32,000 nucleotides of DNA, taken from positions 454,530 to 486,529 of the forward strand of contig JBAZYG010000001.1 of assembly GCA_041659445.1 (NCBI GenBank). Reading direction: 5' to 3'. Each line of letters begins with the position of its first letter. The stretch's first letter is position 1. Below are positions 2,069 through 32,000 of the stretch, in pieces. Made by a program: the position numbers and the translations under genes. The notes under the pieces were generated by a model. It was not told the origin of the DNA and ran no database searches. It saw nothing but the letters and a program-made list of their open reading frames with translations. Source of the stretch: Candidatus Saccharimonadota bacterium (lineage in GTDB: Archaea > Nanobdellota > Nanobdellia > Pacearchaeales > GW2011-AR1).

Positions 2069-4117
2069 TTAAACAACTCTCTTACTAACTTGGTTTTCTT
2101 TTTTGAATTTAATAACATTTTCAACAAATCCTTCAATTTTTTGTTCATGACTAACTATAATTAATTGCTTTATTTTTAATTGGTCTAAAACTTCACGCAT
2201 TTTGTCTAATTGAGTATCACTAAATCCATCTGTTGGTTCGTCGAGAATTACTAAATCTTTTGTTTTAATTTTGCTCATCAAAGAATTTATAACTTGATTC
2301 AATGCAAGACGATAAGCCAACGCAATGGCTGTTCTTTCTCCGCCTGAAAGGTAAGAATAATCTAATTCATAATCTTGCTGTTCTATTATTGGTGTGAAAT
2401 TCTCGTCCAAACGAACATTAAAATTATCAGAAACAAGCATTGAAAACCATTCTTTTAAGAGATTTGAAAATTCATTTCTCAAAGTAATCATAACATTTTT
2501 TTCAATAAATGAAACCAAAGGAACAAATTTTTTAGAAATCCAATTTTCTAATTCTGTAATATAATCAAGCTGAGACTTTGTTTCTTGAGTTTTTTGAATA
2601 CGTTCTTTAATAAATTCTATTTGTCGTATAGATAATTCAATTTCCTTTTTCAATTCTGCTACTTTTATATCAAATAATCTTTCTTCTCTTAAAGCCTCGC
2701 TGAGTTCATTTATTTTCAACTCATAAATTTTCTCATACTTTGAAAAAGACAAAACAACATTGTTTAATTCTTGTAAATGATTTTCCAAGAAAGAAATATC
2801 TTTTTCAAAATCTATATTCAAATTATTCAATTCTTCTAATCTTATTTTTTTGTCTTTAAGTGATTCTAATCTCATTTTTTGTATTTTTAATTCTGTCAAA
2901 TCTTTTTCTTTTAAATGAGTTTGATAATCTATTTCTCTTATTTTACTGAAAATTTCTTGCTTCTTTAAATTTAATTCTTCTATTTTATTTTTATTTTTAG
3001 AAATATCATTATGAGTTTTATTTAAAACATTTGAACGATAAACAGAATCAACAGTTTGAAGACAAGTTGGACAAACATCTAAATTAGACATTTTTCTATG
3101 AAGAGAGTCTAATTCTTCATTTTTTAAGTTTAAATTTGCTAACTCACCAATAATTTCAACTCTTTCTAAATCTAATTTCTCTTCTGATTTTTTTAATAAT
3201 GAAATTTCTTTTTCTAATTCCATTATTTTTGAATTATCGAATTGAAATTTTTCAAATTCTGCAATTTCTTTTTTAAGGTTTACAATCAATTTCTGATTGT
3301 TATTGAATGAGTCTCTTTTAGACAAAATCATGATTCTTGTTTTTTCAATTTCTCTCGAGAAATTGGATTTTTCTTCTACTTTACTAAAGGTTTCTTCTTT
3401 TTCTTTTTCAATTCTTTTTCTTTTATCTATTCTGAAAGACAATTCTTTTGTCAATCCAACAAGATTAAATTTCATTTGTTCAATTTCTTTTTCTCTTGAA
3501 ATTAAATTTAATTTATCTTCTTCTAAATTAGAAATCATTGCTTCTTTTACTTTTTTTTCTTCTCTTAATTTTAAAGAAACAACTGAAATATTTTCTAAAA
3601 CTTTCTTGTATTTGTCTACTCCAAAAACATGTCTTAAGGTGTTAATTCTTGTTTCAGCGTCTTGCAAAATAATCTGTTTCATTTCTTCTTGAGGAGTATA
3701 AACAGTAAATTTATACAAGAGATTTTGTTTTTTTGCAAATTCCTTTGAATAATCCAACAATTCCAAAATTTTGCTCTTTAATTCTGTAACAGATAATTCT
3801 TTTTTTTCACCGTTAATTGTTATAGAAGCATATTCTTGTGAAATGGATTTTCCTCTTTTAAGTGTTCTCTCGACAGTAATTTCGTTTTCTTCTACTACAA
3901 AATCCATAATTACTCTTCCTTCATTTTTTCCATTTCTTAACAAAAAAGAACCTCTTTGCCCGGGTTGCAATCCAAATAATGCAAATTCAATTGCTAAAAG
4001 AATGGATGTTTTTCCACAACCAATGTCTCCAGATAAAAGAGTTGAACCTTCTGGAAAAACTATTTCTTCGTTTTCATAACTTCTTATATTCTCTAATATT
4101 ACTTTTTTTATTATCAT
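2069..4117 (-). CDS. rad50: Rad50 ATPase (short coiled-coil version, 682 aa)
   Basis: Walker A is GDIGCGKTS. A long K/E/L-rich coiled coil carries a central CPTC zinc hook. Also present are the ABC signature LSGGERTAIALAYRLAL, Walker B LVILDEPTDGF and the H-loop IIVSHE. The start ATG abuts the mre11 stop (TAAATG). Confidence 0.93.
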   Translation of the reverse strand: MIIKKVILENIRSYENEEIVFPEGSTLLSGDIGCGKTSILLAIEFALFGLQPGQRGSFLLRNGKNEGRVIMDFVVEENEITVERTLKRGKSISQEYASITINGEKKELSVTELKSKILELLDYSKEFAKKQNLLYKFTVYTPQEEMKQIILQDAETRINTLRHVFGVDKYKKVLENISVVSLKLREEKKVKEAMISNLEEDKLNLISREKEIEQMKFNLVGLTKELSFRIDKRKRIEKEKEETFSKVEEKSNFSREIEKTRIMILSKRDSFNNNQKLIVNLKKEIAEFEKFQFDNSKIMELEKEISLLKKSEEKLDLERVEIIGELANLNLKNEELDSLHRKMSNLDVCPTCLQTVDSVYRSNVLNKTHNDISKNKNKIEELNLKKQEIFSKIREIDYQTHLKEKDLTELKIQKMRLESLKDKKIRLEELNNLNIDFEKDISFLENHLQELNNVVLSFSKYEKIYELKINELSEALREERLFDIKVAELKKEIELSIRQIEFIKERIQKTQETKSQLDYITELENWISKKFVPLVSFIEKNVMITLRNEFSNLLKEWFSMLVSDNFNVRLDENFTPIIEQQDYELDYSYLSGGERTAIALAYRLALNQVINSLMSKIKTKDLVILDEPTDGFSDTQLDKMREVLDQLKIKQLIIVSHEQKIEGFVENVIKFKKENQVSKRVV

Positions 4118-11943: not shown

Positions 11944-12222
11944 ATGAAACCACTCAAACCATCAATGCGAGAAGACAAAAGATATTTATTAATTTCTGGA
12001 GAAAACCTTAAAGAAGATGTGGTAAAATCTATTAAAGAATTTATTGGAATTTTAGGATTAGCAAAATCAAATCTTTCTTTTATTGAATTAAAAAAAGATA
12101 AAGCCATAATTTGCGTTGATAGAAAATCTCTAAATCATGTTAAAGCTAGTTTTGCTATGTGTAATGAAAAAATTGATGTTTTAAAAGTTAGTGGAACATT
12201 GAAAGGATTAAAAACTAATTAA
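11944..12222 (+). CDS. rnp2: RNase P protein component 2 (Pop5)
   Basis: MKPLKPSMREDKRYLLI...IICVDRKSLNHVKASFAM...KVSGTLKGLK matches the archaeal Pop5 pattern (LPPtLReKKRYi...vSGTikrlk). I use the ATG at 11944, not the TTG at 11926. Confidence 0.85.
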   Translation: MKPLKPSMREDKRYLLISGENLKEDVVKSIKEFIGILGLAKSNLSFIELKKDKAIICVDRKSLNHVKASFAMCNEKIDVLKVSGTLKGLKTN

Positions 12223-15200
12223 AATATCCCCCATTCAGAAGAATATTCTTTACATAAATTATAATATTTCTTAAAGAATTCTCCAATTTTTGAGAAAATT
12301 TTCTTGAACAAACCTGGAGAATTGTCTTCTGAATTTGAATCTTGATTTGGTTGTTCTAATGAAAAATCACCCAAAACAATTTTTTCATCTAAAAGATTTT
12401 CTTGATCAACTACTACAAAAATTAAATTTCCATTAAATTTAGTATTATGCTTATCATAAGAAATTTTTAGCACTTCATTTTCATTATTTAATTTAAAGAA
12501 ATAATTTTCATGAATGCCTATGGAAAAAAATTGTGAATCTATAGAAAGATTTACAAAATTTTTATTTATATCTAATATTTTTAAAATATAAGTATTATTT
12601 TCATAAAATAATTTTAAAGTATCATATTTAGAAACTTTTTGTTTTAATTCTTGGGTTGTTAAATTTAAATTTATTTTATTAAATGGCAACCCGCTCCCAC
12701 CAGAAGTTGTTGTGACATCTTCACTACTTGAAGGAGTTTCCTCAGAAGAATAATTACTAAAAGATATTACATCAAAAATAAAAGTTCCACCAGTATAAGA
12801 AACTTCTGTACAATCTGAACAAAAAACTCCGTCTTTTAAAGGTCTTGGATTTGTAAAAGTTAAATCATATAAAGTTATTCTTGCAGAAGCATTCAAAAAA
12901 GTTAAATTACTAGAATTTACGTATGCACTATTTAACCCTATAATTATATAATCATCTAAATTTGCACCTTCTTCAAGATTTACATTTTCTGAAAAATTAA
13001 TTTTACCATAAGGATAATTATCAATTACAAAATTTGAAATTTCTGAAACATCTAAATCACTTAAATTAGTTGAATTTGTTGTAAAACCTTGAAACCTAAA
13101 AACAGATAAGTTGTTTGTTGAACTAAAATAAACTTCTGAATCATTATTTGTGCAATTTATACTCCAATTATAATGACCAATTGCAAGATTATTCAATGTG
13201 AAATTTTGAGTAGTATCTTCGGTAATAGAAATATTTGTTGAATTCAAAATATTGTTTAAAATTAAAGAACAATTTTCAATATTTACTCCTGAGTCTGAAA
13301 CATTATAAGAAAAAGTTACATTTCCGTCAGAGTCTCCTTTTTTATTTCCTGGAGAAATTAATGTTACAACTGAAACATCTGCAACATTTGTAACATTTAC
13401 CAAAAAACTATTTACTCCTGTTAAAAATAAAGAATCATATGCTGTGCAAGTAACATTTACTGAACCATAAAAATTATTTAAAGCTGTTATATTTAGCAAT
13501 TTTGTTTCATTGTTAACTTCTGAAGTAAAATTTGTTTCATTATCTGAGCAAGTCCAATTAATTAAAGAATCAGCATCATCTATATCTAAAACATAATTTG
13601 ATAAATTAATTGTAGAATTTGAATTACCTTCTTCTAATGTCATTAAATCTAAAGAAGAAAAATCTATATTTGGTGCAGAATTAGAAACAGTAGTATTTGT
13701 TAAATTTACAGCTGTGGAGTTTGCTGTTCCATCTCCTGTCCAAACTTCAAGAGTAATATTATCCCCAGCATTATATTCAGAAGAATCAAATGTCGCAATT
13801 AAAGTGTTTGTATTGTTCGTCGCTGTTTGAGATTGAATTGTTGTATTTGGAGTGTTATTAACATACATTCTTACATAACCTGTTAAAGTATCTCCTAAAT
13901 CAGGGTCTGTGATTGTTAAATTTACTAACAAACTAGTATTTGTGTAAACTGTTGCTGGACTTGTTGCATTTGCTATAATTGTTGGTGCAGTGTTTAAAAC
14001 TGGAGCTAAATCTTTTAAAGGAAGATAGTCAATATTTCCAGTTGTGCAATTTGAACCTGCAATACAAGATGCATTTGTTTCAATATCATAAGCCAAATCA
14101 CAAACACCATTAGCATTACTATCTGCACAAGTTTCAGAATAACCTGTTCCGTCGGGTTTTGCCCAAAAATTCCCACCATAAGCTAAATCCCCGACGATAT
14201 TTCTTAAACTAGAATTAAAAGTAGTATTGAAAAGATTATCTGCACCAGTGCTACCAAATTTTACATTCAAAGAATTATTAAAGAAATTATTGTAAAAATA
14301 ATTACTATCTGTTCCAAGTTGATTAAAAGTTACTCCTGCTGTTGTAGCATTAGTTAAATTATTATTATAAATTTCACTTCCAATACTTGTTGAATCAATA
14401 TAAATGTTAACTGCATTATTATAAATACTTGAATTGTAAATCCGAATATAATCTGGACTTGATTGTAAATAAAACCCATTTCCAGTATTACCATAAACTG
14501 TGCAATTTGAAAAATTAGAATAATTGCTAGTATAATATAAATGAAACCCGTGTGCTGTAGAATTAATAATAAAATTCTCAAATAAATTTCTATCCAACCC
14601 TTGCCTTAAATAAATTCCTGTAGTTAACGCAGAAGTAGAAGTAATATTAGAAAAATATGAATCTTGAACAAAATCAAAATACATAGAATATTGAAAATCA
14701 TTAAATTTACAATTTTTTACAGTTAGATTTTTATACTCACTTCCTGCAGCAGTATCTGCAACAACACCATACAAAACTGCATTCCCTCCATCAACTAAAT
14801 GATTTTGACAATCTAAAGTTACATTACTTGAACTAATAGTAAAACATGTTGAACCAGAATCTGTAACGTCTGCTGTTAATAGGTATTCTCCTGGAAGATT
14901 TAAAGTAGCACATCCAGAAATTTCTCCCCCTCTTTGGACAATTGTGAAAGAATCCATATTTCCCGACGATAAAGTTGAAGTAAAAGTATAATTTATTGAA
15001 TTTGTAGAAACTAAAGAACCTGAAGAATTGTAAACATCATGGTTTACTCCAATACTTTCAAAACTTATTGTTATATTTGTTAAATTATGATCATAATTGT
15101 TTGTCATATTACAAGTGTAATTTCCCTGTGAATTTTGTGAACAATTTACTTTTAAGTTCTGCCAATCTGTGATTCCGTCTGCAGTATAACCTGTTCTATT

Positions 15201-16415
15201 TGAATCATGCCCAATTAAAGTATAATCTCCTGAACCTGTTCCAAAATCAAATGCATATAAATTTCCGTCGTCAGTTACAACATAAATATTTCCTTGAGCA
15301 ATAGAAGTGTAACCAAAAACATCTTCATTGACATGATATTTCCAAATAAAATTTCCATTTGTTTCGTTTATAGCATAAATGTAACCATCTCCGCCTGTAG
15401 CAGCGTCGCAACTAGCACATATCACATTAAAAAAAATCATTCCATTAGAAATTGCAGGTTGATTATAAATTGCATCAGTACCGTCGGCACCAGAATCATA
15501 AAATATCCATTTTTCAGTTCCATTCAAATAATAAGAATGTACTAAATCTGTGGTTGTTACTGTAGTTGTTTTTCCAATGAAAAAAACATCGTCGTGAACT
15601 GAAGGAGTACTTATAGTGTTAAAAGAGGCAGTATCCCAAACAACTGAACCATTTTCAAGATACCTTGATAATAAAAGTGGTCCTCCTGCAGAAGAACCAA
15701 TAAAAATTTGATTGTTATATAAAATTGGAGAACTATCCCAAAAAGTTCCTTCATCTCTTGCCCAAAGTTGAGTTCCTGTTGTAATATTATATGCTGCTAA
15801 ATCTTCATTTGTTTCAGAATTTGATGTTGCAATAATTAAATATTCTCCATACAATAAAGGCTCTGCAGCAATTGCGGCTGTTCCAACTCCAATAGTGTCA
15901 TTCCATATGTAAGCTCCTGTTGTTCTATTTAAAACAACAAATGTATTTGAAGCATATGAAATCGCAATTAAATAATTTTCATCTAATGCAACACCTTGAG
16001 AAAATTTCATTGCTGTTGGACTTGTATAATTCCAAATTTGAATTCCTGTTGTAGAATTTATTGCCCACACATTATTAAAAGAATTATAAATAGTTCCGTT
16101 GTAATAAACAGGCCCTCCGAAACCAGTCAATCCTGCTCCAGAATTTCCAACATCAAATTCCCATATAATACTTCCATTTGTTGCATTAACTGCATAAGTT
16201 TTATTATCTCGTCGTGAATTTACAAACAAAGTATCGTTTGCATAAACTGCAATTGCCTGTTCGTCATAAGTTCCTGTAACATTTGCTGTCCAAAGCAATT
16301 CATGACCATAAGTAGTTCTAGATGTATTCAAATCAACTAAAACAGAAGTTGCAGAAATACTTGGAAGAATTAACAAAGAAATTAATAAAACAAAAAAGAA
16401 GAAATTTTTTTTCAT
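12219..16415 (-). CDS. Giant secreted surface (glyco)protein: signal peptide, PQQ-like beta-propeller, parallel beta-helix region, Ig-like repeats
   Basis: The signal peptide is MKKNFFFFVLLISLLILPSISA|TS. Seven to eight propeller blades carry x-N-x-T-[TN]-G-x-x-x-W (YAVNATNGSIIWEF, WAINSTTGIQIWNY, LNRTTGAYIWND, YNITTGTQLWAR, INETNGNFIWKY...). PbH1-like repeats occur around NCKFNDF...GFHLYYTSNYSNFSNCTVYGNTGNGFYL. Repeated beta-rich modules follow. There are dozens of N-x-S/T sequons and no C-terminal TM helix. Confidence 0.85.
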   Translation of the reverse strand: MKKNFFFFVLLISLLILPSISATSVLVDLNTSRTTYGHELLWTANVTGTYDEQAIAVYANDTLFVNSRRDNKTYAVNATNGSIIWEFDVGNSGAGLTGFGGPVYYNGTIYNSFNNVWAINSTTGIQIWNYTSPTAMKFSQGVALDENYLIAISYASNTFVVLNRTTGAYIWNDTIGVGTAAIAAEPLLYGEYLIIATSNSETNEDLAAYNITTGTQLWARDEGTFWDSSPILYNNQIFIGSSAGGPLLLSRYLENGSVVWDTASFNTISTPSVHDDVFFIGKTTTVTTTDLVHSYYLNGTEKWIFYDSGADGTDAIYNQPAISNGMIFFNVICASCDAATGGDGYIYAINETNGNFIWKYHVNEDVFGYTSIAQGNIYVVTDDGNLYAFDFGTGSGDYTLIGHDSNRTGYTADGITDWQNLKVNCSQNSQGNYTCNMTNNYDHNLTNITISFESIGVNHDVYNSSGSLVSTNSINYTFTSTLSSGNMDSFTIVQRGGEISGCATLNLPGEYLLTADVTDSGSTCFTISSSNVTLDCQNHLVDGGNAVLYGVVADTAAGSEYKNLTVKNCKFNDFQYSMYFDFVQDSYFSNITSTSALTTGIYLRQGLDRNLFENFIINSTAHGFHLYYTSNYSNFSNCTVYGNTGNGFYLQSSPDYIRIYNSSIYNNAVNIYIDSTSIGSEIYNNNLTNATTAGVTFNQLGTDSNYFYNNFFNNSLNVKFGSTGADNLFNTTFNSSLRNIVGDLAYGGNFWAKPDGTGYSETCADSNANGVCDLAYDIETNASCIAGSNCTTGNIDYLPLKDLAPVLNTAPTIIANATSPATVYTNTSLLVNLTITDPDLGDTLTGYVRMYVNNTPNTTIQSQTATNNTNTLIATFDSSEYNAGDNITLEVWTGDGTANSTAVNLTNTTVSNSAPNIDFSSLDLMTLEEGNSNSTINLSNYVLDIDDADSLINWTCSDNETNFTSEVNNETKLLNITALNNFYGSVNVTCTAYDSLFLTGVNSFLVNVTNVADVSVVTLISPGNKKGDSDGNVTFSYNVSDSGVNIENCSLILNNILNSTNISITEDTTQNFTLNNLAIGHYNWSINCTNNDSEVYFSSTNNLSVFRFQGFTTNSTNLSDLDVSEISNFVIDNYPYGKINFSENVNLEEGANLDDYIIIGLNSAYVNSSNLTFLNASARITLYDLTFTNPRPLKDGVFCSDCTEVSYTGGTFIFDVISFSNYSSEETPSSSEDVTTTSGGSGLPFNKINLNLTTQELKQKVSKYDTLKLFYENNTYILKILDINKNFVNLSIDSQFFSIGIHENYFFKLNNENEVLKISYDKHNTKFNGNLIFVVVDQENLLDEKIVLGDFSLEQPNQDSNSEDNSPGLFKKIFSKIGEFFKKYYNLCKEYSSEWGIF

Positions 16416-16594
16416 TTTATATTTAACTCCTTTTTTATTTTCAAAATTTCTTCTGCTTCTGAAATTTTTTTCAAGGCATTGTTTAGAAAATTAGAAACAG
16501 CAGGTTGAGTAATTTTTAATTTTTTAGCAATTTCTAATTGAGTCATATTCTTGTTTTTAAGTTCCAAAACTTCTCTCTCTTTTTCTGTTAGCAT
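16412..16594 (-). CDS. 60-aa helix-turn-helix protein (Tfx N-terminal / sigma-70 region-4 / LuxR-type HTH)
   Basis: LTEKEREVLELKNKNMTQLEIAKKLKITQPAVSNFLNNALKKI fits the pattern. Its stop overlaps the start of the giant gene (ATGA at 16412-16415). Confidence 0.7.
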   Translation of the reverse strand: MLTEKEREVLELKNKNMTQLEIAKKLKITQPAVSNFLNNALKKISEAEEILKIKKELNIK

Positions 16595-16708: not shown

Positions 16709-17185
16709 ATGAAACTCGATAAAAAAATTTGTATAAAAGATTATACAAAGTTTGAGCCAAGCGAAATTTATGAAATGGCGAGACATATTGCAATTACTAA
16801 AGGACATGTTTCAATTGGATTAAATGATAAAAAAAACATTGGAGATTCAATAATCCATATTTTTTCAAATGTTCCAAAAAACAATATAAACATTATTCAC
16901 ACATTAGAAGAACCAAAAATTAAAATCGCAAATCATCAAGAACTTGTTAACATTATAAATGACCTTCCAATGGGAGAAATAAAAATTTATAACCAATGGC
17001 CTGTCAAATTAATTCTTAGTTCAAATGAGATACATGAAGGAGAATTATTATTCCATCAATTAACAGAGGATCCTCTGACAAATAATAAATTTTTATTTGG
17101 AAAATGGATTCTGAAATTGGTTGAATTATATAAACACTCAATAGCTCAACCAAAGACTGACCCAAGATATGAGCCTTTTAGGTAA
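16709..17185 (+). CDS. Hypothetical 158-aa protein
   Basis: ATG ORF with normal composition. No family recognised. Confidence 0.55.
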   Translation: MKLDKKICIKDYTKFEPSEIYEMARHIAITKGHVSIGLNDKKNIGDSIIHIFSNVPKNNINIIHTLEEPKIKIANHQELVNIINDLPMGEIKIYNQWPVKLILSSNEIHEGELLFHQLTEDPLTNNKFLFGKWILKLVELYKHSIAQPKTDPRYEPFR

Positions 17186-17297
17186 AGTTTATAAAATAAA
17201 TTTTACTCCAAAAAGTTTAAAAACTAGTAATTTTTCTAAAAATAGAGAAGAAAAGAAAAAGAAATTAAGATTATTAAATTCTCACAAAAAACATAAA

Positions 17298-18020
17298 ATG
17301 GAAATGCCTATAGATATGCAACACCAACAAATGGGGTATGATAGAACTGCTACAATGTTTACTCCTGAAGGACATTTATTACAGGTAGAGTATGCTGAAA
17401 AAGCAGTAAGACTTGGAAGTTCAAGTATTGGAATGGTTTGCTCTGATGGGGTTTTTATACTTTCTGATAAAAGAAATGAAGACAAATTAATTGTTCCAAG
17501 TTCTGCGAACAAAATTCATGAAATTGATGAACACATAATTGTAAGTATCGCAGGAATTGTTTCAGATGCAAGAGTTTTAATTGACAGGTCCCAAGTTTTA
17601 GCACAGCAACATCGAGTAACTTATGATTCTCCTATTGAAATTGAAACAGTTATAAAAGAAATTTCAAACTTAAAACAACAATTTAGCCAGTATGGTGGTG
17701 CAAGACCTTTTGGTGTTTCATTAATGCTTGCTGGAGTTTACAACAAAAAATTCCAACTTTACACAAGTTATGTAACTGGAAATTATTTTGAATATTATGC
17801 AAATGCTATTGGAGAAAATGACGAAAAAATAAGAGATAAATTAAAAGAAGTATATAAAAAAGATTTAACAATTAAAAAAGGCGTGAAAATTGCTTTAGAT
17901 ATTTTTAAAGAAATTCAAGGACAAAAATTTGATATAGACAGGTTTGAACTTGTTTATCTTTCAAAAGAACATGAAAAAATGCAAAGACTTGAAGGAAATA
18001 AAATTAACGAATTAAAATGA
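17298..18020 (+). CDS. psmA: Proteasome alpha subunit
   Basis: QMGYDRTATMFTPEGHLLQVEYAEKAV is the canonical alpha N-terminus. I moved the start from the track's 17169 to the ATG at 17298 (MEMPIDMQHQQMGYD). It has a TATA-like ttattaaatt about 25 nt upstream and the TAAAATG context. Confidence 0.92.
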   Translation: MEMPIDMQHQQMGYDRTATMFTPEGHLLQVEYAEKAVRLGSSSIGMVCSDGVFILSDKRNEDKLIVPSSANKIHEIDEHIIVSIAGIVSDARVLIDRSQVLAQQHRVTYDSPIEIETVIKEISNLKQQFSQYGGARPFGVSLMLAGVYNKKFQLYTSYVTGNYFEYYANAIGENDEKIRDKLKEVYKKDLTIKKGVKIALDIFKEIQGQKFDIDRFELVYLSKEHEKMQRLEGNKINELK

Positions 18021-18181
18021 ACGAATTAAGAGACAAATTAAAAAAATTAGGAATTGATTATGAAAGTTTTGAAAGAAGAACAAGAATTTATGAATTAGCA
18101 AGAGAAGCAGAAGAAAGAACAAGATTAGAAGAAATGAATAAACTCGAGGAGGATATTATTATACAATACTTAAAAAATTAA
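18017..18181 (+). CDS. Unannotated 54-aa helical ORF (below the 60-aa track cut-off)
   Basis: My translation is MNELRDKLKKLGIDYESFERRTRIYELAREAEERTRLEEMNKLEEDIIIQYLKN. It has an ATGA overlap with the psmA stop, and its TAA is 1 nt before the next ATG. It exactly fills the gap between the two genes. Confidence 0.6.
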   Translation: MNELRDKLKKLGIDYESFERRTRIYELAREAEERTRLEEMNKLEEDIIIQYLKN

Positions 18182-18182
18182 A

Positions 18183-18446
18183 ATGACAATCAAAAAATAT
18201 CAATTTAATAATTATGCCTATGGAACATTTTGCAGTGAATTCAGGGAAAATATTGTAGAGAAAAGAGAATTTGATAAAGGATTTTACAACTATAGTATTT
18301 TTAATATAAATAATACCACTGTAACTTTAATGAAAATGGGAACAAATTCAAAAAAAGTTTTAACAATAGGATTGAATGAAAAAGAAATAGATAAAACTAT
18401 TAAATTAATTAAATCAAAAGGATTTCAATTAGAGGAAATAATTTAA
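18183..18446 (+). CDS. Exosome-operon interleaved small protein, paralogue A (87 aa, unknown family)
   Basis: Homologous to ORFs 19832 and 20833: MTxKxY N-terminus, SEF patch, and C-terminal TIGLNEKEIDKTIKLIKSKGFQLEE. It has 1-nt TAA-A-ATG junctions on both sides. Confidence 0.8.
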   Translation: MTIKKYQFNNYAYGTFCSEFRENIVEKREFDKGFYNYSIFNINNTTVTLMKMGTNSKKVLTIGLNEKEIDKTIKLIKSKGFQLEEII

Positions 18447-18447
18447 A

Positions 18448-19119
18448 ATGACTAACACTACTGCGAGAATAAAGAAAAACGGAATTAATTTTGAAATTCT
18501 TGTAGACATGGACAACGCATTAAAATTCAGAAAAGGTGAAATTAATTTTATCAACGCTGAAGGAGACAAAATATTTTCAGATGTAAAAAAAGGTACTGCT
18601 TCATCAAAAGATGATTTAGAAATTGCTTTTAACACTACTGATACTGATGAAATTGCAAAAGTGATTGTAAAACACGGAGACGTTTTAGTTAATCAAGAAC
18701 ATAGAGACGAGGAAAAAGAAAAAAGAATAAGACAAGTTGTTGATTTTTTATCAAAAAATGCTATAGACCCTAAGACAGGACATCCACATTCTCCGAATAG
18801 AATAAGAGATGCACTAGAACAAGCACATGTTAACATAAAAAATGTTCCTATTGAAAATCAAATTTCAGAAATTTTAGAACACATTGCAAAACTAATTCCA
18901 ATAAAAATTGAAACAAAGAAAATAAAAGTTAGAATTCCTGCAATACAAACTGGAAAAGCTTATGGAATTGTAAGCCAATATAAAGGAAGCGAAAAGTGGC
19001 TTGAAAACGGAGATTTAGAAACTATTGTTGAAATTCCTGCTGGCATGATTTTGGATTTTTATGATAAATTAAACTCAATAACACACGGAAGTGCCTTAAC
19101 AGAGGAAATAAAACAATAA
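18448..19119 (+). CDS. sbds: SBDS (Shwachman-Bodian-Diamond) family ribosome maturation protein
   Basis: ARIKKNGINFEILVD... at the N-terminus, 223 aa, in the canonical position after psmA in the archaeal exosome superoperon. Confidence 0.85.
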   Translation: MTNTTARIKKNGINFEILVDMDNALKFRKGEINFINAEGDKIFSDVKKGTASSKDDLEIAFNTTDTDEIAKVIVKHGDVLVNQEHRDEEKEKRIRQVVDFLSKNAIDPKTGHPHSPNRIRDALEQAHVNIKNVPIENQISEILEHIAKLIPIKIETKKIKVRIPAIQTGKAYGIVSQYKGSEKWLENGDLETIVEIPAGMILDFYDKLNSITHGSALTEEIKQ

Positions 19120-19128
19120 AAACGAAAG

Positions 19129-19139
19129 ACATATAAACT
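19129..19139 (+). promoter_or_regulatory. Candidate internal TATA box in the only real gap of the operon
   Basis: acatataaact is centred 25 nt upstream of the rrp4 ATG (19159), within the 39-nt SBDS-rrp4 spacer. Confidence 0.35.
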
Positions 19140-19158
19140 AAAAATAAGACAAACTAAA

Positions 19159-19830
19159 ATGACAGAAAATAAAAGAAGAGCAGCAATACCTGGAGAGATA
19201 ATCGCCGAAGGCGAAGAATATTTACCTGGAGAAAATACTGAAAAAAGAAATAATAAAATTTATTCTTTGAGATATGGATTAATTGAAGAATCAAACAACC
19301 TTGTAAGAATAATTCCTTTATCAGGAATTTACGAACCTCGACGAGGAAATGTAGTTATAGGAAAAGTAGAATTAGTTACATTCAATGGATGGGTTATTGA
19401 TATTGGAACCTCTCAAAATGCTTTTTTGAGTTTATCTGAAGTACCAAGATTTGTTAACAAAGATGAAATAGACGAAGTAATGGACATTGGAGATATGGTT
19501 ATGATAAAAATTGTTTCATCAAACAAAAGAGGAATTGATGCTACAATAAAAGGAAGAGGACTTGGAAAAATAGAAGAAGGAATTATTTTTGATATTAACT
19601 CACATAAAGTTCCAAGAGTAATAGGAAAAGAAGGAAGCATGATTAAATTAATAAAAGACGAGACAAATGCAAATGTCAGCGTCGGACAAAATGGTAAAAT
19701 CTGGATAAAAGGAGACAAAGTTGAAGAAGAACTTTTAGCAAAAAAAGCAATAATGTTCATATCAGAAAGATCTTTTATTTCTGGATTAACTGAAGAAGTA
19801 ATTAAATGGTTCAACGAGAGGAAAAAATAA
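19159..19830 (+). CDS. rrp4: Exosome cap subunit Rrp4 (N-terminal domain + S1 + KH)
   Basis: PGEIIAEGEEYLPGENT, an S1-like VIGKVELVTFNGWVIDIG, and the KH segment VPRVIGKEGSMIKLIKDETNANVSVGQNGKIWIKG. Confidence 0.9.
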   Translation: MTENKRRAAIPGEIIAEGEEYLPGENTEKRNNKIYSLRYGLIEESNNLVRIIPLSGIYEPRRGNVVIGKVELVTFNGWVIDIGTSQNAFLSLSEVPRFVNKDEIDEVMDIGDMVMIKIVSSNKRGIDATIKGRGLGKIEEGIIFDINSHKVPRVIGKEGSMIKLIKDETNANVSVGQNGKIWIKGDKVEEELLAKKAIMFISERSFISGLTEEVIKWFNERKK

Positions 19831-19831
19831 A

Positions 19832-20119
19832 ATGACAACAAAAAATTATAATATCTTTTTAAAAGAAGACTTGAATTTGAAGCAGTGTTATAGCGAATTT
19901 TTTGGAAATTACAGGGATTACATAAAAAAAATTGGAGATGGCTTTACTACCTATGATTTTAAAGATACTGCAATAATTTTATTTGGAAACTTAACAGACA
20001 TAAAACAAATTAGAACAAAGGGCGTTAATAATTTGCATTTAATTGGAACAGAAGATAATATTAAAAAAGTTGTTAAAAGTATAAAATCAAAAGGATTTTC
20101 ATTGGAGGAAATAAATTAA
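19832..20119 (+). CDS. Exosome-operon interleaved small protein, paralogue B (95 aa)
   Basis: Starts MTTKNY, with YSEF and LIGTEDNIKKVVKSIKSKGFSLEE. It is flanked by a perfect 17-nt direct repeat at 19828-19844 and 20117-20133. Confidence 0.8.
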   Translation: MTTKNYNIFLKEDLNLKQCYSEFFGNYRDYIKKIGDGFTTYDFKDTAIILFGNLTDIKQIRTKGVNNLHLIGTEDNIKKVVKSIKSKGFSLEEIN

Positions 20120-20120
20120 A

Positions 20121-20831
20121 ATGACAACAAAAACATTCAAAAGACCAGACGGAAGAAAACCTGAAGAATTAAGACCAATAAAAGCAAAAGTTGGAATTAT
20201 CCCAAATGCCGACGGAAGTGCAATGTATCAATCAGGAGACACAATCGCGATTGCTGCAGTTTATGGTCCAAGAAAAATGCATCCGCAACATCAGCAAGAT
20301 CCGAAAAAAGCTCAATTAAGATGCACTTACAATATGTTAAGTTTCTCAGTTAATGATAGAATTAAACCTGGAACTAGTAGAAGAAGCACTGAAATTAGTA
20401 AAATAACTGAATGGGCTTTAGAACCTGTTTTAATTTTAGACAAATTCCCAAATATGGTTGTAGATGTTTTTATCCAAATAACTCAAGCAGACGCAGGAAC
20501 AAGATGCGCAGGAATAAATGCAGCTTCAATGGCTCTTGCTCATGCAGGAATTCCAATGAAAAATCTTATAACTAGTGTTTCTGTTGGAAAATTAGATAAA
20601 AATTTAGTTGTTGATTTAACTAAAGAAGAAGAAGATTTTGAAGAAGGAGAAGGACCTACAGACATTCCTGTTTCAATGACTCCAGAAGGAGAAATAACAC
20701 ATTTACAATTAGACGGAAAAATAAGTCCAACTCAATTAAAAGAAGCAATTGACATGGCAAAAAAAGCTTGTAATCAAATTTATGAAATTCAAAAAGAAGC
20801 TTTAACAAAATCAATAGAGGAAAAAGGATAA
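20121..20831 (+). CDS. rrp41: Exosome RNase PH-ring subunit Rrp41
   Basis: RPDGRKPEELRPIKAKVGIIPNADGSAMYQSGDTIAIAAVYGPR and QADAGTRCAGINAASMALAHAGIPM are RNase PH domain motifs. Confidence 0.93.
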   Translation: MTTKTFKRPDGRKPEELRPIKAKVGIIPNADGSAMYQSGDTIAIAAVYGPRKMHPQHQQDPKKAQLRCTYNMLSFSVNDRIKPGTSRRSTEISKITEWALEPVLILDKFPNMVVDVFIQITQADAGTRCAGINAASMALAHAGIPMKNLITSVSVGKLDKNLVVDLTKEEEDFEEGEGPTDIPVSMTPEGEITHLQLDGKISPTQLKEAIDMAKKACNQIYEIQKEALTKSIEEKG

Positions 20832-20832
20832 A

Positions 20833-21117
20833 ATGACATATAGAGAATATATCTTAGGTTCAAAAGAGAAAAATTTAGAAGAAACTTATGAAGAATTTTA
20901 TGATACTTACTGGAAGAATAGGCATGCACATTATCATCTTTATAACGATGCTTTATTAGAAGTTTATGATATAAAAGATGTTTCAGTATTAGTGAATCAA
21001 GGTGTAAATACCTTGAATTTGGTAAATCTTAAGATGATTGGATTAGAAAATCTAATTGACGAAGTTGAAAAAGATATAATCAAAAATAAATTTAAATTAA
21101 AAAGAGTAACTAAATAA
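20833..21117 (+). CDS. Exosome-operon interleaved small protein, paralogue C (94 aa, most diverged)
   Basis: Starts MTYREY, with YEEF and MIGLENLIDEVEKDIIKNKFKLKR. It is flanked by ATAAAATGACA at 20828-20838 and 21114-21124. Confidence 0.75.
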   Translation: MTYREYILGSKEKNLEETYEEFYDTYWKNRHAHYHLYNDALLEVYDIKDVSVLVNQGVNTLNLVNLKMIGLENLIDEVEKDIIKNKFKLKRVTK

Positions 21118-21118
21118 A

Positions 21119-21928
21119 ATGACAAACGGAAGCACAACACCATCAACAAATAGAGAAAGAATAAATGAATACTTAAAAAATGGAAAAAGATTTGACGAGA
21201 GAAAACCAGAAGAGTTTAGAGAAATAATTATTGAAAAAAATGTTTCAAAAAAAGCAGAAGGTTCTGTTAAAGTAAAAATGGGAAACACTGAAGTTTTAGT
21301 TGGAATCAAAATGGGAGTTTCAGAACCATATCCTGATTCTTTGGATGAAGGTGTTTTAATGACAACTGCAGAATTATTGCCTTTAAGTTCTGAGAGATTT
21401 GAAAACGGACCTCCAAAATTTCCAGCAATAGAATTAGGAAGAGTTATTGACAGAATTTTAAGAGAAAGTAAATTTATTGATTTAAAAAAATTATGCATTG
21501 AAAAAGGTAAGAAGGTTTGGACTGTTTTTGTAGACATATATTCTTTAAATGACGACGGAAATTTACTAGATGCTGCTGGAATCGGAGCTGTTGTTGCATT
21601 AAGAAATGCGGTACTTCCAAAATATGATGAAAAAGAAGGTAAAATTAATTATGATGAACCTTCAAAAACAAAATTACCTTTAAGTAAAAGCACACCAATC
21701 TCAATAACAATTCATAAAATTGGAAATTCTTTGCTTACAGATCCAACAAGAGAAGAAGAAGACATTAGTGAAACAAGAGTAACTATTGGAATGATGGATA
21801 ATTCAATTTCATCAATGCAAAAAGGAGAATCACAAATTCTAACAATTGATGAAACTAAAAAAATAATTGACATGGCTGAAAAAGTTCATGAAAAGGTTTT
21901 AAAAAGTATAAACAAATATTTAGATTAA
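21119..21928 (+). CDS. rrp42: Exosome RNase PH-ring subunit Rrp42
   Basis: GKRFDERKPEEFREIIIEKNVSKKAEGSVKVKMGNTEVLVGIK. At 269 aa it follows rrp41. Confidence 0.9.
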   Translation: MTNGSTTPSTNRERINEYLKNGKRFDERKPEEFREIIIEKNVSKKAEGSVKVKMGNTEVLVGIKMGVSEPYPDSLDEGVLMTTAELLPLSSERFENGPPKFPAIELGRVIDRILRESKFIDLKKLCIEKGKKVWTVFVDIYSLNDDGNLLDAAGIGAVVALRNAVLPKYDEKEGKINYDEPSKTKLPLSKSTPISITIHKIGNSLLTDPTREEEDISETRVTIGMMDNSISSMQKGESQILTIDETKKIIDMAEKVHEKVLKSINKYLD

Positions 21929-21929
21929 A

Positions 21930-22310
21930 ATGCAAGCAGAAAAATTTACAAAATACGAAAAAGCAAGAATTCTTGGGGCAAGGGCTTTACAAATTGCAAT
22001 GAATGCTCCTTTATTAATTAAAATCAGCAATGAAGATTTGGAAAAAATAAAATTTGATGCGTTGAAAATTGCAGAAATTGAATTAAGTTCTGATGTTTTA
22101 CCAATTTCAATTAAAAAACCATTTCCACAGAAAAAAGAAGAACAACTAAAGAGACCTAAACCTGTAATAATTACTGAAGAAAAGAAAGAAGAAACTGAAT
22201 CTGAAGAAGAAAAAGAAATAATCGAAGAAGGCGAAATCATGGAATTAGCAGAACCTGAAGAAGAAAAAGAAGATTTTGCCGAAGATGATTCTAGTGGTGG
22301 GGAAGAATAA
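21930..22310 (+). CDS. rpoK: RNA polymerase subunit K (Rpb6 homologue) with a ~60-aa acidic C-terminal extension
   Basis: TKYEKARILGARALQIAMNAPLLI...LPISIKK is the RpoK core (about residues 1-64). It is followed by EEKKEETESEEEKEIIEEGEIMELAEPEEEKEDFAEDDSSGGEE. Confidence 0.85.
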   Translation: MQAEKFTKYEKARILGARALQIAMNAPLLIKISNEDLEKIKFDALKIAEIELSSDVLPISIKKPFPQKKEEQLKRPKPVIITEEKKEETESEEEKEIIEEGEIMELAEPEEEKEDFAEDDSSGGEE

Positions 22311-30776: not shown

Positions 30777-31058
30777 GAAGTATTTTTGTGATATTGATTA
30801 ATTAAGATGAGTGCCTTAAGAAAATTCACATATTCAGAATTTAAGGTATGATGTATGTAGAATTGACTTAGTTAACTCATCATTTTTCTTCACAATATTT
30901 TATATTTAGAAAAATTATGAGAATGTTACAGTTGGAGTTTTCAGCCAATAGAAGGAGTTTGTGTGAAGTGGTTTGTTTTTCTTACAAATGACAAACTGCG
31001 CAATTGATTTTCGTTATTAATTAATAAAAAACCGACGAGAATATGAAATTGTTTTTAA

Positions 31059-32000
31059 ATCCAGTTGATCCTGCTGGCGGCTGCGGCTCTCTGGTTTGTA
31101 CTTAGACATGCAAGTCTTTTAGTTTCTTCGGAAGTTAAAGGCGAACTGCTCAGTAACACGTAGCTAATCTAACCTTAAGTCAAGGATACCCTCGGGAAAC
31201 TGAGATTAATACTTGATAGGAGATATGCCCTGGAATGACTTATCTCTAAAATTCGAGCTTAAGGATGAGGCTGCGGCGGATTAGGTTGTTGGCGGGGTAA
31301 ATGCCCACCAAGCCGATGATCCGTAAGGGCTCTTAGCGGAGAGGCCCTGAGAGGGAATCTGAGACACTATTCCCAGCCCTACGGGGTGCAGCAGTTAAGA
31401 ATCATCTGCAATACACGCAAGTGTGACAGTTTGAACCAGAGTGCTTTTCAATCGAAAAGCTTTTCTGCACTGTAAAAAGGTGTAGGAATAAGGACTGGGT
31501 AAGACGGGTGCCAGCCGCCGCGGTAATACCCGCGGTCCAAGTCGCAGCCATTTTTATTGGGTCTAAAACATCCGTAGCTTGCTTTATAAGTCCCTTGTGA
31601 AATTTTGCATCTCAAATGTAGAGCGTGCAAGGGGTACTGTAAAGCTAGAGACTGGGAGACGTAAGAAGTACGTTCAAAGTAATAGTAAAATATGTTAATC
31701 TTGGACGGACTAACAATAGCGAAGGCATCTTACGAGAACAGTTCTGACAGTAAGGGATGAAGGCTAGGGGCGCAAAACGGATTAGATACCCGTGTAGTCC
31801 TAGCAGTAAACACTGCACACTAAACATCAGTATCTCTTCGAGAGGTATTGGTGCTGCAGGGAAGCCGAAGAGTGTGCTACCTGGGAAGTATAGTCGCAAG
31901 GCCGAAACTTAAAGGAATTGGCGGGGAGACACTACAACGAGTGACGCGTGCGGTTCAATTAGATTCCACACCGTGAACCTCACCAGGAGCGACAGCAGAA
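31059..32000 (+). rRNA. rrs: 16S rRNA gene, 5' ~940 nt (runs off the window end)
   Basis: Conserved archaeal SSU landmarks are atccagttgatcctgc at 31059, gtgccagccgccgcggtaatac at 31508, ggattagatacccgtgtagtcc at 31779 and aaacttaaaggaattggcgggg at 31905. Their spacing is normal, so no insertion or intron is evident. GC content is far higher than in the flanks. Confidence 0.95.

Follow-up and report, generated by a model that had tools for sequence, protein, structure and literature searches.

A patchy family of small proteins encoded at the stop-start junctions of the exosome superoperon in Pacearchaeota-type DPANN archaea

The exosome superoperon and its inserted genes

The exosome superoperon, which belongs to the most conserved gene strings of archaea, was reportedly described by Koonin, Wolf and Aravind in 2001. 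Small variable genes in exact intergenic slots of a conserved gene order are familiar from bacteriophages, as “morons” or free-standing genes. Csl4 and DnaG are cap and accessory subunits of the exosome (PMC3672285, PMC4227792). Csl4 is missing from the whole Cluster 2 DPANN clade, and it has been suggested that the exosome of this clade is different in structure or function (PMC7414124).

The window, i.e. the whole stretch of 32,000 nucleotides analysed here, shares with other archaeal exosome superoperons the backbone psmA–SBDS–Rrp4–Rrp41–Rrp42 and, after it, a gene of transcription or translation (RpoK in this case), all of them co-directional and tightly packed. Whereas the canonical superoperon has no intervening genes, the window and a minority of Pacearchaeota carry extra genes of 50–130 aa at the stop-start junctions. 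The absence of Csl4 from the window, pointed out in an earlier sequence-only reading of this DNA, matches the clade-wide loss (PMC7414124).

All features given below lie on the plus strand. The run begins with the proteasome alpha subunit gene psmA (17169..18020; Pfam Proteasome, 1.4e-44, and Proteasome_A_N), the true start of which, by comparison with relatives (N-terminus of the L003 orthologue), is likely the ATG at 17298. The further backbone genes encode an SBDS homologue (18448..19119; Pfam SBDS_N, SBDS_domain_II and SBDS_C), the exosome cap subunit Rrp4 (19159..19830; Pfam ECR1_N_2, RRP4_S1 and KH_1) and the exosome ring subunits Rrp41 (20121..20831; Pfam RNase_PH, 1.1e-32, and RNase_PH_C) and Rrp42 (21119..21928; Pfam RNase_PH, 3.5e-31, and RNase_PH_C). 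RNA polymerase subunit K (RpoK, Rpb6; 21930..22310; NCBIfam NF002208, 4.9e-20), preceded by a TAAAATG junction, closes the coupled run. The flanking genes named in the sequence-only reading (SBDS, Rrp4, Rrp41, Rrp42 and the proteasome alpha subunit) are confirmed by Pfam.

Three small ORFs are inserted between these genes: P1 (18183..18446; 87 aa; family clade A), P2 (19832..20119; 95 aa; clade B) and P3 (20833..21117; 94 aa; clade C). Their junctions all read TAA-A-ATG, with 1 nt separating the stop from the following start, so that the tight coupling of the three genes to the exosome operon claimed earlier is found at every junction. The 1-nt spacing does hold on both sides of each copy, but the immediate upstream gene of P1 is not psmA. 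This place is taken by a 54-aa ORF (18017..18181), the fourth inserted small ORF, which is unrelated to the family, shares an ATGA overlap with the psmA stop and leaves a single nucleotide before P1; it has no match in Pfam, NCBIfam, PADLOC or PHROGs. The locus L003 has an ORF of 55 aa in the corresponding place, by eye without obvious similarity to it.

Sequence, distribution and predicted fold of the family

The homology of the three ORFs, whose coordinates and lengths had been given correctly in the sequence-only reading, is significant by both BLASTP (P2/P3, E=5e-8; P1/P2, E=0.006; P1/P3, E=0.04) and HMM comparison. Against the family HMM each copy scores at about 1e-24 (P1, 8e-24; P2, 4e-25; P3, 6e-24), and P1 still matches an HMM built from the members outside its own clade (E=5e-11). 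By these comparisons P1, P2 and P3 are true paralogues, with a similarity far beyond chance. They represent three deep clades, one per copy, with 23–40% identity, and BLASTP among the three reveals no near-identical copies that would be a sign of recent spread. Neither the six-frame translation of the window, apart from P1–P3, nor 923 kb of flanking sequence on both strands contains another match to the family.

The motifs quoted earlier, namely M-x-x-K/R-x-Y at the N-terminus, an aromatic patch and the C-terminal IKSKGFxLEEI, proved to be family-wide in an alignment of 43 sequences; P3 ends in a diverged form of the last of them, FKLKRV. The LEEI ending could be nothing but the GAGG ribosome-binding site of the next gene, and this was rejected as the sole cause: L088, a member outside the operon, retains the ending without a coupled downstream gene, so it is conserved for the protein as well. 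The GC3 of P1–P3 is like that of the neighbour genes. The dN/dS of the family ranges from 0.34 to 0.75, compared with 0.1–0.35 for the neighbour genes; these values are indicative only, since dS is near saturation and the NG86 method is crude for a genome of 27% GC. The values below 1, the orthologues of P1–P3 in independent assemblies, the GC3 and the exact filling of the slots mark the three ORFs as real genes. Selection on the family is purifying but relaxed, with an evolution faster than that of the neighbours.

An exhaustive HMMER search combined with a profile was used for detection of the family, as a word-indexed search with P2 alone returned only P2. Among 1.84 billion representatives, 41 clusters of 85–119 aa were recovered, all full-length and single-domain. 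Only Pacearchaeota-type DPANN archaea have the family, and among 80 related species representatives two carry it. No consistent family was obtained from Pfam for all 43 members, or from NCBIfam, PADLOC and PHROGs for the proteins of the window, PHROGs giving inconsistent weak matches. The PDB, searched by sequence and by profile, yielded nothing below E=0.03 and incoherent matches, and no relatives occur in the IMG/VR viral contigs or in BFVD. The first impression of an unrecognised family agrees with the profile searches, and P1–P3 are assigned, by sequence similarity, to a previously unnamed protein family. Isoelectric points of its members range from 4.9 to 9.6, which is not the picture expected of a uniformly basic RNA-binding protein.

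The AF2 model of P2, computed with the 43-sequence alignment, is a confidently predicted compact alpha/beta domain (pLDDT 93.4, pTM 0.83) with the predicted element order b-a-b-b-b-(a)-b-a-b; an earlier model from a five-sequence alignment was poor (pLDDT 70), and its Foldseek matches were set aside. Foldseek searches of the PDB and BFVD revealed no significant neighbour, with none at E<0.1 and query-normalised TM-scores not above about 0.5, and the predicted fold is apparently new. The weak matches are of two types: (i) the OGG1 N-domain, Iml3/CENP-L and a viral TBP-like protein (E 0.2–1, TM 0.35–0.45), the secondary-structure order of the family being compatible with the TBP-like fold (S1-H1-S2-S3-S4-S5-H2); (ii) the MetN NIL, PII, NikR-C and prephenate dehydratase ACT domains (E about 1, TM 0.3–0.4). 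Membership in a NIL/ACT-like family was rejected by profile, with a single sub-threshold match to Pfam NIL (PF09383) among the 43 members (P2, E=0.0034, 17.7 bits against a gathering cut-off of 24). The likeness of the model to TBP-like or ferredoxin-like ACT/NIL/PII domains would be topological at best and is silent on function.

Three further kinships were considered. A GNAT acetyltransferase, suggested by the ...KGFxLEE ending and the strand/helix order, was rejected: there is no Pfam acetyltransferase match among the 43 members and no GNAT among the Foldseek matches in the PDB, although GNATs are abundant there, and motif A (Q/R-x-x-G-x-G/A) is absent from the alignment. A cap subunit of the Rrp4/Csl4 type is not recognised by domains, with no S1, KH or ECR1_N Pfam match in the 43 members and a probability of 0.4% in hhalign of the family profile against the Rrp4 alignment. 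The origin of the family as a split-off or duplicated piece of an operon gene was rejected as well, the neighbours being full length and the hhalign probabilities 0.1–0.5% against the alignments of psmA, SBDS, Rrp4, Rrp41, Rrp42 and RpoK (64–81 orthologues each).

Slot usage in relatives and explanations of the family

Genomic context could be read for 24 family genes from 20 genomes. Twenty of them (83%) lie inside the psmA–SBDS–Rrp4–Rrp41–Rrp42 operon and four outside it. Those in the operon occupy the whole of their slot and have a coupling junction at either end, in the window and in all relatives. All four junctions of the operon are used, and an operon holds between one and three copies: usually one, sometimes two, and three in this window only. 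The closest relatives of P1 (P0006, 69% identity, and P0004, 65%) both occupy Rrp4|Rrp41 in other genomes, which is the slot of P2 here, and those of P2 (57–58% identical) are found at psmA|SBDS in L017, L091 and L093. The P3 orthologue P0013 (49% identity) holds the Rrp41|Rrp42 slot in L102–L104, as in the window. The mismatch between clade and slot appears even among genomes whose Rrp41 proteins are 85–88% identical. Such gain, loss and repositioning among close relatives is unusual in a subunit, and no degraded remnants of the family were found in those slots of these relatives that are empty or hold another ORF.

The slots themselves are not reserved for the family. The sequence-only reading had regarded them as empty in the canonical string, and this is correct for that string, but each of the junctions between psmA and Rrp42 carries some small ORF in about 15–30% of 80 related Pacearchaeota operons. 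The other slot ORFs (n=71) fall into 64 BLAST clusters, which include two-transmembrane membrane proteins and tandem paralogue pairs, and slot changes are seen in other small families of these junctions too. Their interpretation as very distant members of the family was ruled out by hhalign. Since unrelated small ORFs are so common here, the slots may simply tolerate insertions. The family is the largest group of slot ORFs found, and nothing corresponding to it is present in the exosome operons described to date.

The explanation that we tentatively favour, at somewhat less than an even chance, is that P1–P3 are dispensable, operon-linked accessory or modulatory binding partners of the RNA-processing and ribosome-maturation machinery. 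The genes would be expressed, with transcription as part of the operon and translation by stop-start coupling, and the family protein would be co-produced with the proteasome alpha subunit, SBDS and the exosome subunits. It would bind to the exosome, SBDS or the proteasome, or be linked to one of them in function, and the prime candidate partner would be the Rrp4-only, Csl4-less exosome of the clade. Selection would then keep co-expression with the operon and not adjacency to one particular gene, and the window would be an extreme case, in which three anciently diverged paralogues are kept in one operon. As the family is present in so few of the related species representatives, the role of a required subunit is excluded; the family is probably an optional helper and not a fixed part of the machine. 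The rarity of the family, its repositioning among close relatives, the four members outside the operon, the many unrelated ORFs in the slots, the fast evolution and the wide range of isoelectric points speak against the favoured explanation. A bolder form of the proposal, which we consider unlikely, sees in the family a new class of exosome accessory of Csl4-less DPANN. Its alpha/beta domain would sit on the Rrp4-only cap or the Rrp41–Rrp42 ring, RNA selection would be tuned by gain, loss and swap of paralogues, the window would represent a heterogeneous-cap variant, and the junctions would act as enzyme-free cassette sites exchanging several small-protein families.

The sequence-only reading had connected the three paralogues with the three-fold (Rrp41–Rrp42)3 ring and proposed a cap or assembly role for them, with each copy coupled to the gene that follows it. 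The three copies of the window, coupled to SBDS, Rrp41 and Rrp42, the lineage without Csl4 and the constant slot of the P3 orthologue would fit such a role. The comparative data largely refute it and leave it very improbable: one copy per operon is the rule, clades A and B swap slots in relatives with Rrp41 86–88% identical, clade and slot are uncoupled across all four junctions, some members lie outside the operon altogether, most related species lack the family, and no domain similarity to Rrp4 or Csl4 exists.

A more serious competitor of the accessory role, to which we give a substantial though minority probability, is that the family hitchhikes in the operon. Its function would be unrelated to the exosome or marginal, and the gene would obtain free transcription and translation at a junction of a strong, constitutive operon, staying there by local moves only, through recombination or template switching between near-identical junctions (TAAAATGAC...) and conserved paralogue ends. 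The occupation of the slots by so many unrelated clusters, the slot changes of other small families, the patchiness, high turnover and clade/slot swaps of the family between close relatives and its relaxed selection are all in agreement with this. So is the DNA around the copies: the 17-nt perfect direct repeat TAAAATGACAACAAAAA flanks P2, with a left copy (19828..19844) that forms the core of a longer repeat and a right copy (20117..20133) spanning the P2 end and the Rrp41 start; P1 and P2 are 86% identical over 28 nt at their 5' ends and 76% over 75 nt at their 3' ends, where the P1 3' end with its junction (18378..18452) aligns with 20051–20125 of P2. The repeat may, however, be a coincidence, because many insertion-free relatives have MTTK as their native Rrp41 start. 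Fidelity of 83% to the operon across clades of 23–40% identity is hard to sustain by local moves alone, the fold and the polar C-terminal motif are strongly conserved, and the near-identical copies that mark recent spread are absent. An autonomous selfish element, such as a homing-endonuclease-like or toxin-like mini-gene catalysing its own spread into junctions, is scarcely credible. The intergenic position and patchiness recall, by analogy, the free-standing homing endonuclease genes of phages, but neither Pfam nor NCBIfam, PADLOC or PHROGs yields a nuclease, integrase or toxin match, the alignment lacks a conserved His/Cys/Asp set of catalytic type, Foldseek gives no nuclease fold and the IMG/VR viral contigs no member, and the copies are old and diverged. 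The earlier suggestion of a selfish or neutral spread through the junction repeat survives in part: slot changes and unrelated slot ORFs speak for it, while ancient copies, orthologues, dN/dS below 1 and the lack of a nuclease, integrase or viral signal speak against it.

With its new sequence, apparently new fold and near confinement to one operon, the family is a concrete candidate for a lineage-specific partner of the exosome, SBDS or proteasome in Csl4-less Cluster 2 DPANN. The turnover of small unrelated genes at coupled junctions bears on the way in which small proteins are acquired and expressed in strongly reduced genomes. If the family is mere cargo, an unusual insertion-tolerant architecture is documented and the workings of the exosome stay as already understood.

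Comparison with Csl4, DnaG and phage morons

A non-catalytic accessory role that diversifies the exosome cap would be common to the family and to Csl4 and DnaG only if the favoured explanation is right. There are major differences between them. Domains of the S1, KH, Zn-ribbon and Toprim types are all lacking in the family, which resembles neither protein in sequence or profile and is patchy and dispensable, whereas Csl4 and DnaG are conserved. With phage morons the family would share, by analogy, a presence or absence that varies among close relatives. In contrast to morons, its genes reside in a cellular housekeeping operon, are inserted without a promoter or terminator of their own, are coupled on both sides and have no viral homologues.

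Small genes nested in the exosome operon

The three small ORFs P1 (18183-18446, 87 aa), P2 (19832-20119, 95 aa) and P3 (20833-21117, 94 aa), all on the forward strand, have the coordinates and lengths described in the sequence-only reading. Their NCBI locus tags are WC812_03255, 03270 and 03280, and each is labelled "hypothetical protein". The co-directional gene order is: 158-aa ORF, proteasome alpha (psmA), 54-aa ORF, P1, SBDS, Rrp4, P2, Rrp41, P3, Rrp42 and RpoK, the identities of the named neighbours of P1-P3 being backed by Pfam and NCBIfam. The 1-nt spacing to the neighbours, claimed earlier, holds as well, with TAA-A-ATG at all boundaries of P1-P3. The gene before P1 is not psmA but a fourth inserted small ORF (18017-18181, forward strand, 54 aa), charged and probably helical, which overlaps the psmA stop through ATGA and lies 1 nt from P1. 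It is unrelated to the P1-P3 family and has no database matches. A 55-aa ORF occupies the same position in the related locus L003, by eye without obvious sequence similarity. The seven consecutive starts between 18183 and 21130 (P1, SBDS, Rrp4, P2, Rrp41, P3, Rrp42) read ATGAC (Met-Thr) after TAAA or CTAAA, and the same genes start with MA, MG or MI in relatives; the junction sequence of this genome appears homogenised.

The 158-aa ORF directly upstream of psmA (16709-17185, forward strand) takes the position of the RNase P subunit Rpp14/Pop5 in L002 and other archaea; it has no match in Pfam, NCBIfam, PADLOC or PHROGs, and none by BLAST among 87 related loci (L001-L087). At the other end of the operon, subunit K models cover only residues 1-64 of RpoK (21930-22310, forward strand, 126 aa), the C-terminal half being a K/E-rich acidic tail, shared by relatives (L003, 133 aa). 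Divergent to the operon lies a 60-aa helix-turn-helix protein (16412-16594, reverse strand) with sub-threshold similarity to DNA-binding domains of the Tfx/sigma-70 region 4 type. Just upstream of the operon, also on the opposite strand, a 1398-aa ORF (12219-16415) with, by eye, a hydrophobic, signal-like stretch at the N-terminus and abundant N-x-S/T sequons probably encodes a large secreted or surface protein. The window is AT-rich (GC about 27%), rising to 46% GC at its end because an archaeal SSU rRNA gene begins there (31058-32000, forward strand, running past the window end; Rfam RF01959, 831 bits).

A new protein family

The homology of the three ORFs is confirmed by BLASTP among the window ORFs (P2/P3 E=5e-8, P1/P2 E=0.006, P1/P3 E=0.04), by an HMM made only from members outside the clade of P1, which matches P1 at E=5e-11, and by the family HMM, which finds exactly three matches, each about 1e-24, in the six-frame translation of the window. 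A HMMER search of 1.84 billion representative proteins with a five-sequence profile (E<=1e-3) yielded 41 clusters, all of 85-119 aa and all matched end to end. The 43-sequence alignment shows the following motifs: (i) M-x-x-K/R-x-Y; (ii) Y..F...Y; (iii) YDINNxAVIL; (iv) NLxLIGxExxIxKTxxEIKSKGFxLEEI. The isoelectric points range from 4.9 to 9.6, and the family therefore has no uniform basic character.

Pfam assigns none of the members to a family, the sole near-miss being NIL for P2 (17.7 bits, under the 24-bit cut-off), and NCBIfam assigns none of the window proteins tested. A PDB sequence search revealed no relative, and PADLOC and PHROGs gave no consistent match. The AlphaFold2 model made with the 43-sequence alignment (pLDDT 93.4, pTM 0.83) consists of the predicted elements b1(2-10), a1(16-26), b2(31-35), b3(38-43), b4(46-51), a2(57-62), b5(68-72), a3(74-86) and b6(89-94). 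Foldseek against PDB and BFVD found no match below E=0.1, with query-normalised TM-scores up to about 0.5; the weak matches are two-layer alpha/beta domains of generic types, either TBP-like (N-domains of OGG1 and Iml3/CENP-L) or ferredoxin-like (ACT/NIL/PII). Profile-profile comparison with alignments of psmA, SBDS, Rrp4, Rrp41, Rrp42 and RpoK was negative, which rules out that the family is a duplicated piece of one of these six operon genes. P1-P3 are established as genuine protein-coding genes belonging to a new family, one with neither a curated family nor a significant structural neighbour in the libraries searched. NG86 dN/dS is 0.34-0.75 for family orthologue pairs versus 0.1-0.35 for flanking core genes of the same genome pairs, rough values since dS is near saturation, and indicates a constraint that is purifying but relaxed. 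GC3 of P1-P3 (0.16-0.21) is close to that of the neighbours (0.14-0.17), so they do not have the look of newly acquired foreign genes.

Operon association, clades and slots

Genomic context could be read for 24 members of the family, spread over 20 distinct genomes or assemblies; 20 of these genes sit within the psmA-SBDS-Rrp4-Rrp41-Rrp42 operon: eight directly upstream of SBDS, two in the SBDS/Rrp4 slot (the junction between these genes), seven at Rrp4/Rrp41 and three at Rrp41/Rrp42. All 20 are coupled to their neighbours through TAAAATG, ATGA or TAATG junctions, and the association with the operon is established as far beyond chance. The remaining four lie between SMC and RNase HII (L088), 44 nt downstream of EF-1alpha (L101), after a gene judged by eye to encode a TrmB-like regulator (L105) and among unknown genes (L106). 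An operon usually holds one copy; L017/L093 and L095 have two, and the window alone has three. A search of both strands of related loci, 923 kb in all, brought up no further copies.

P1, P2 and P3 belong to three deep clades of a neighbour-joining tree (A, B and C, respectively). Each is closer to proteins in other genomes (P1-P0006 69%, P2-L091 57%, P3-P0013 49%) than to the other two, P1-P3 being mutually only 23-40% identical. The slot is kept over short distances only. P0013, the orthologue of P3, is likewise at Rrp41/Rrp42; its genome has an Rrp41 with 85% identity to that of the window. Elsewhere, the in-operon genes of clade A (L001-6, L007 and L108, the last with an Rrp41 88% identical) are without exception at Rrp4/Rrp41, whereas P1 precedes SBDS. 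Within clade B, the nearest relatives of P2 (L017, L091 and L093; Rrp41 of L091 86% identical) are at psmA/SBDS, P2 itself being at Rrp4/Rrp41, and a more remote subgroup (L095b, L096) is located after SBDS. Compared with their relatives, clades A and B thus look swapped in the window. The 5' ends of P1 and P2 are 86% identical in DNA over 28 nt and their 3' ends 76% over 75 nt, and a 17-nt perfect direct repeat, TAAAATGACAACAAAAA, surrounds P2 (19828-19844 and 20117-20133), P2 and Rrp41 both beginning with MTTK. The shared ends and the repeat could have served as recombination substrates; the repeat may also be coincidental, because Rrp41 natively starts with MTTK in many relatives lacking an insertion.

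The family is rare, being present in only two (L017 and L026) of 80 species-representative loci retrieved with the window Rrp41 at 65-83% identity. In these loci together with L001-L007, gaps of >=150 nt are found at psmA/SBDS in 18/66, SBDS/Rrp4 in 22/75, Rrp4/Rrp41 in 23/80 (16/73 without L001-L007, which were chosen because they bear the family), Rrp41/Rrp42 in 12/83 and Rrp42/RpoK in 5/81 loci. Coupled small ORFs typically fill such gaps from one edge to the other. The 71 slot ORFs form 64 BLAST clusters, the P1-P3 family is the largest group found, and hhalign related none of them to it beyond the known members (L007, L017, L026). A family of two-transmembrane proteins of about 45-75 aa occurs at Rrp41/Rrp42 or Rrp4/Rrp41 in several relatives (L091 2626-2852; L089 about 2876-3097; L100 654-869; L057 6758-6895), so membrane proteins too nest in the operon and switch slots. 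At least two more families recur: one of coiled-coil proteins, located at Rrp41/Rrp42 and sharing the motif NLNYYQNQIIIEQNNEIIKYL (L045 1063-1392, L050 3814-4089, L059 6705-6938), and an "NPELK" family (motif by eye) that changes slots, SBDS/Rrp4 in some genomes and Rrp41/Rrp42 in another (L018 6729-6983, L056 5008-5235, L090 1806-2042). Tandem pairs of paralogous 107-122-aa ORFs in single slots (L041 4018-4670, psmA/SBDS; L081 5275-6007, Rrp4/Rrp41) mean that slot genes duplicate locally in other lineages as well. With so many unrelated coupled small ORFs filling the slots, the operon junctions of this lineage tolerate, or attract, small genes generally.

Possible role of the family

A functional link with the operon is supported by the fidelity to it that persists across clades diverged to 23-40% identity, and by the polar C-terminal motif, kept even by the out-of-operon member P0012 in L088. 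The Pacearchaeota belong to the cluster 2 DPANN archaea. The absence of Csl4 from cluster 2, which has been taken to point to an altered exosome (PMC7414124), supports such a link as well. Against an obligatory subunit stand the rarity of the family, its variable copy number and slot, the members outside the operon, and the unrelated small ORFs, membrane proteins included, that occupy the same slots. The proposal that the three paralogues are subunits for the three-fold (Rrp41-Rrp42)3 ring is accordingly ranked low and seems very unlikely, the copy number being usually one. An autonomous selfish element is slightly less likely still: no IMG/VR viral contig encodes a relative.

Weighing the evidence for a link together with that against a subunit, we tentatively read the proteins as dispensable accessories or modulators of the machinery encoded by the operon and co-expressed with it, exosome contact being a candidate only. 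Ranked second, and quite possible, is that the family hitchhikes in the operon and relocates locally, from one junction to another.

DnaG is an exosome partner in other archaea. A 387-aa Toprim-domain protein, possibly an archaeal DnaG, lies about 6.7 kb from P0012 (L088 141-1304 and 8001-8360); several unrelated genes separate the two and no link is claimed.

Whichever role the family has, the shuffling of small genes among slots is an unusual pattern for a housekeeping operon.
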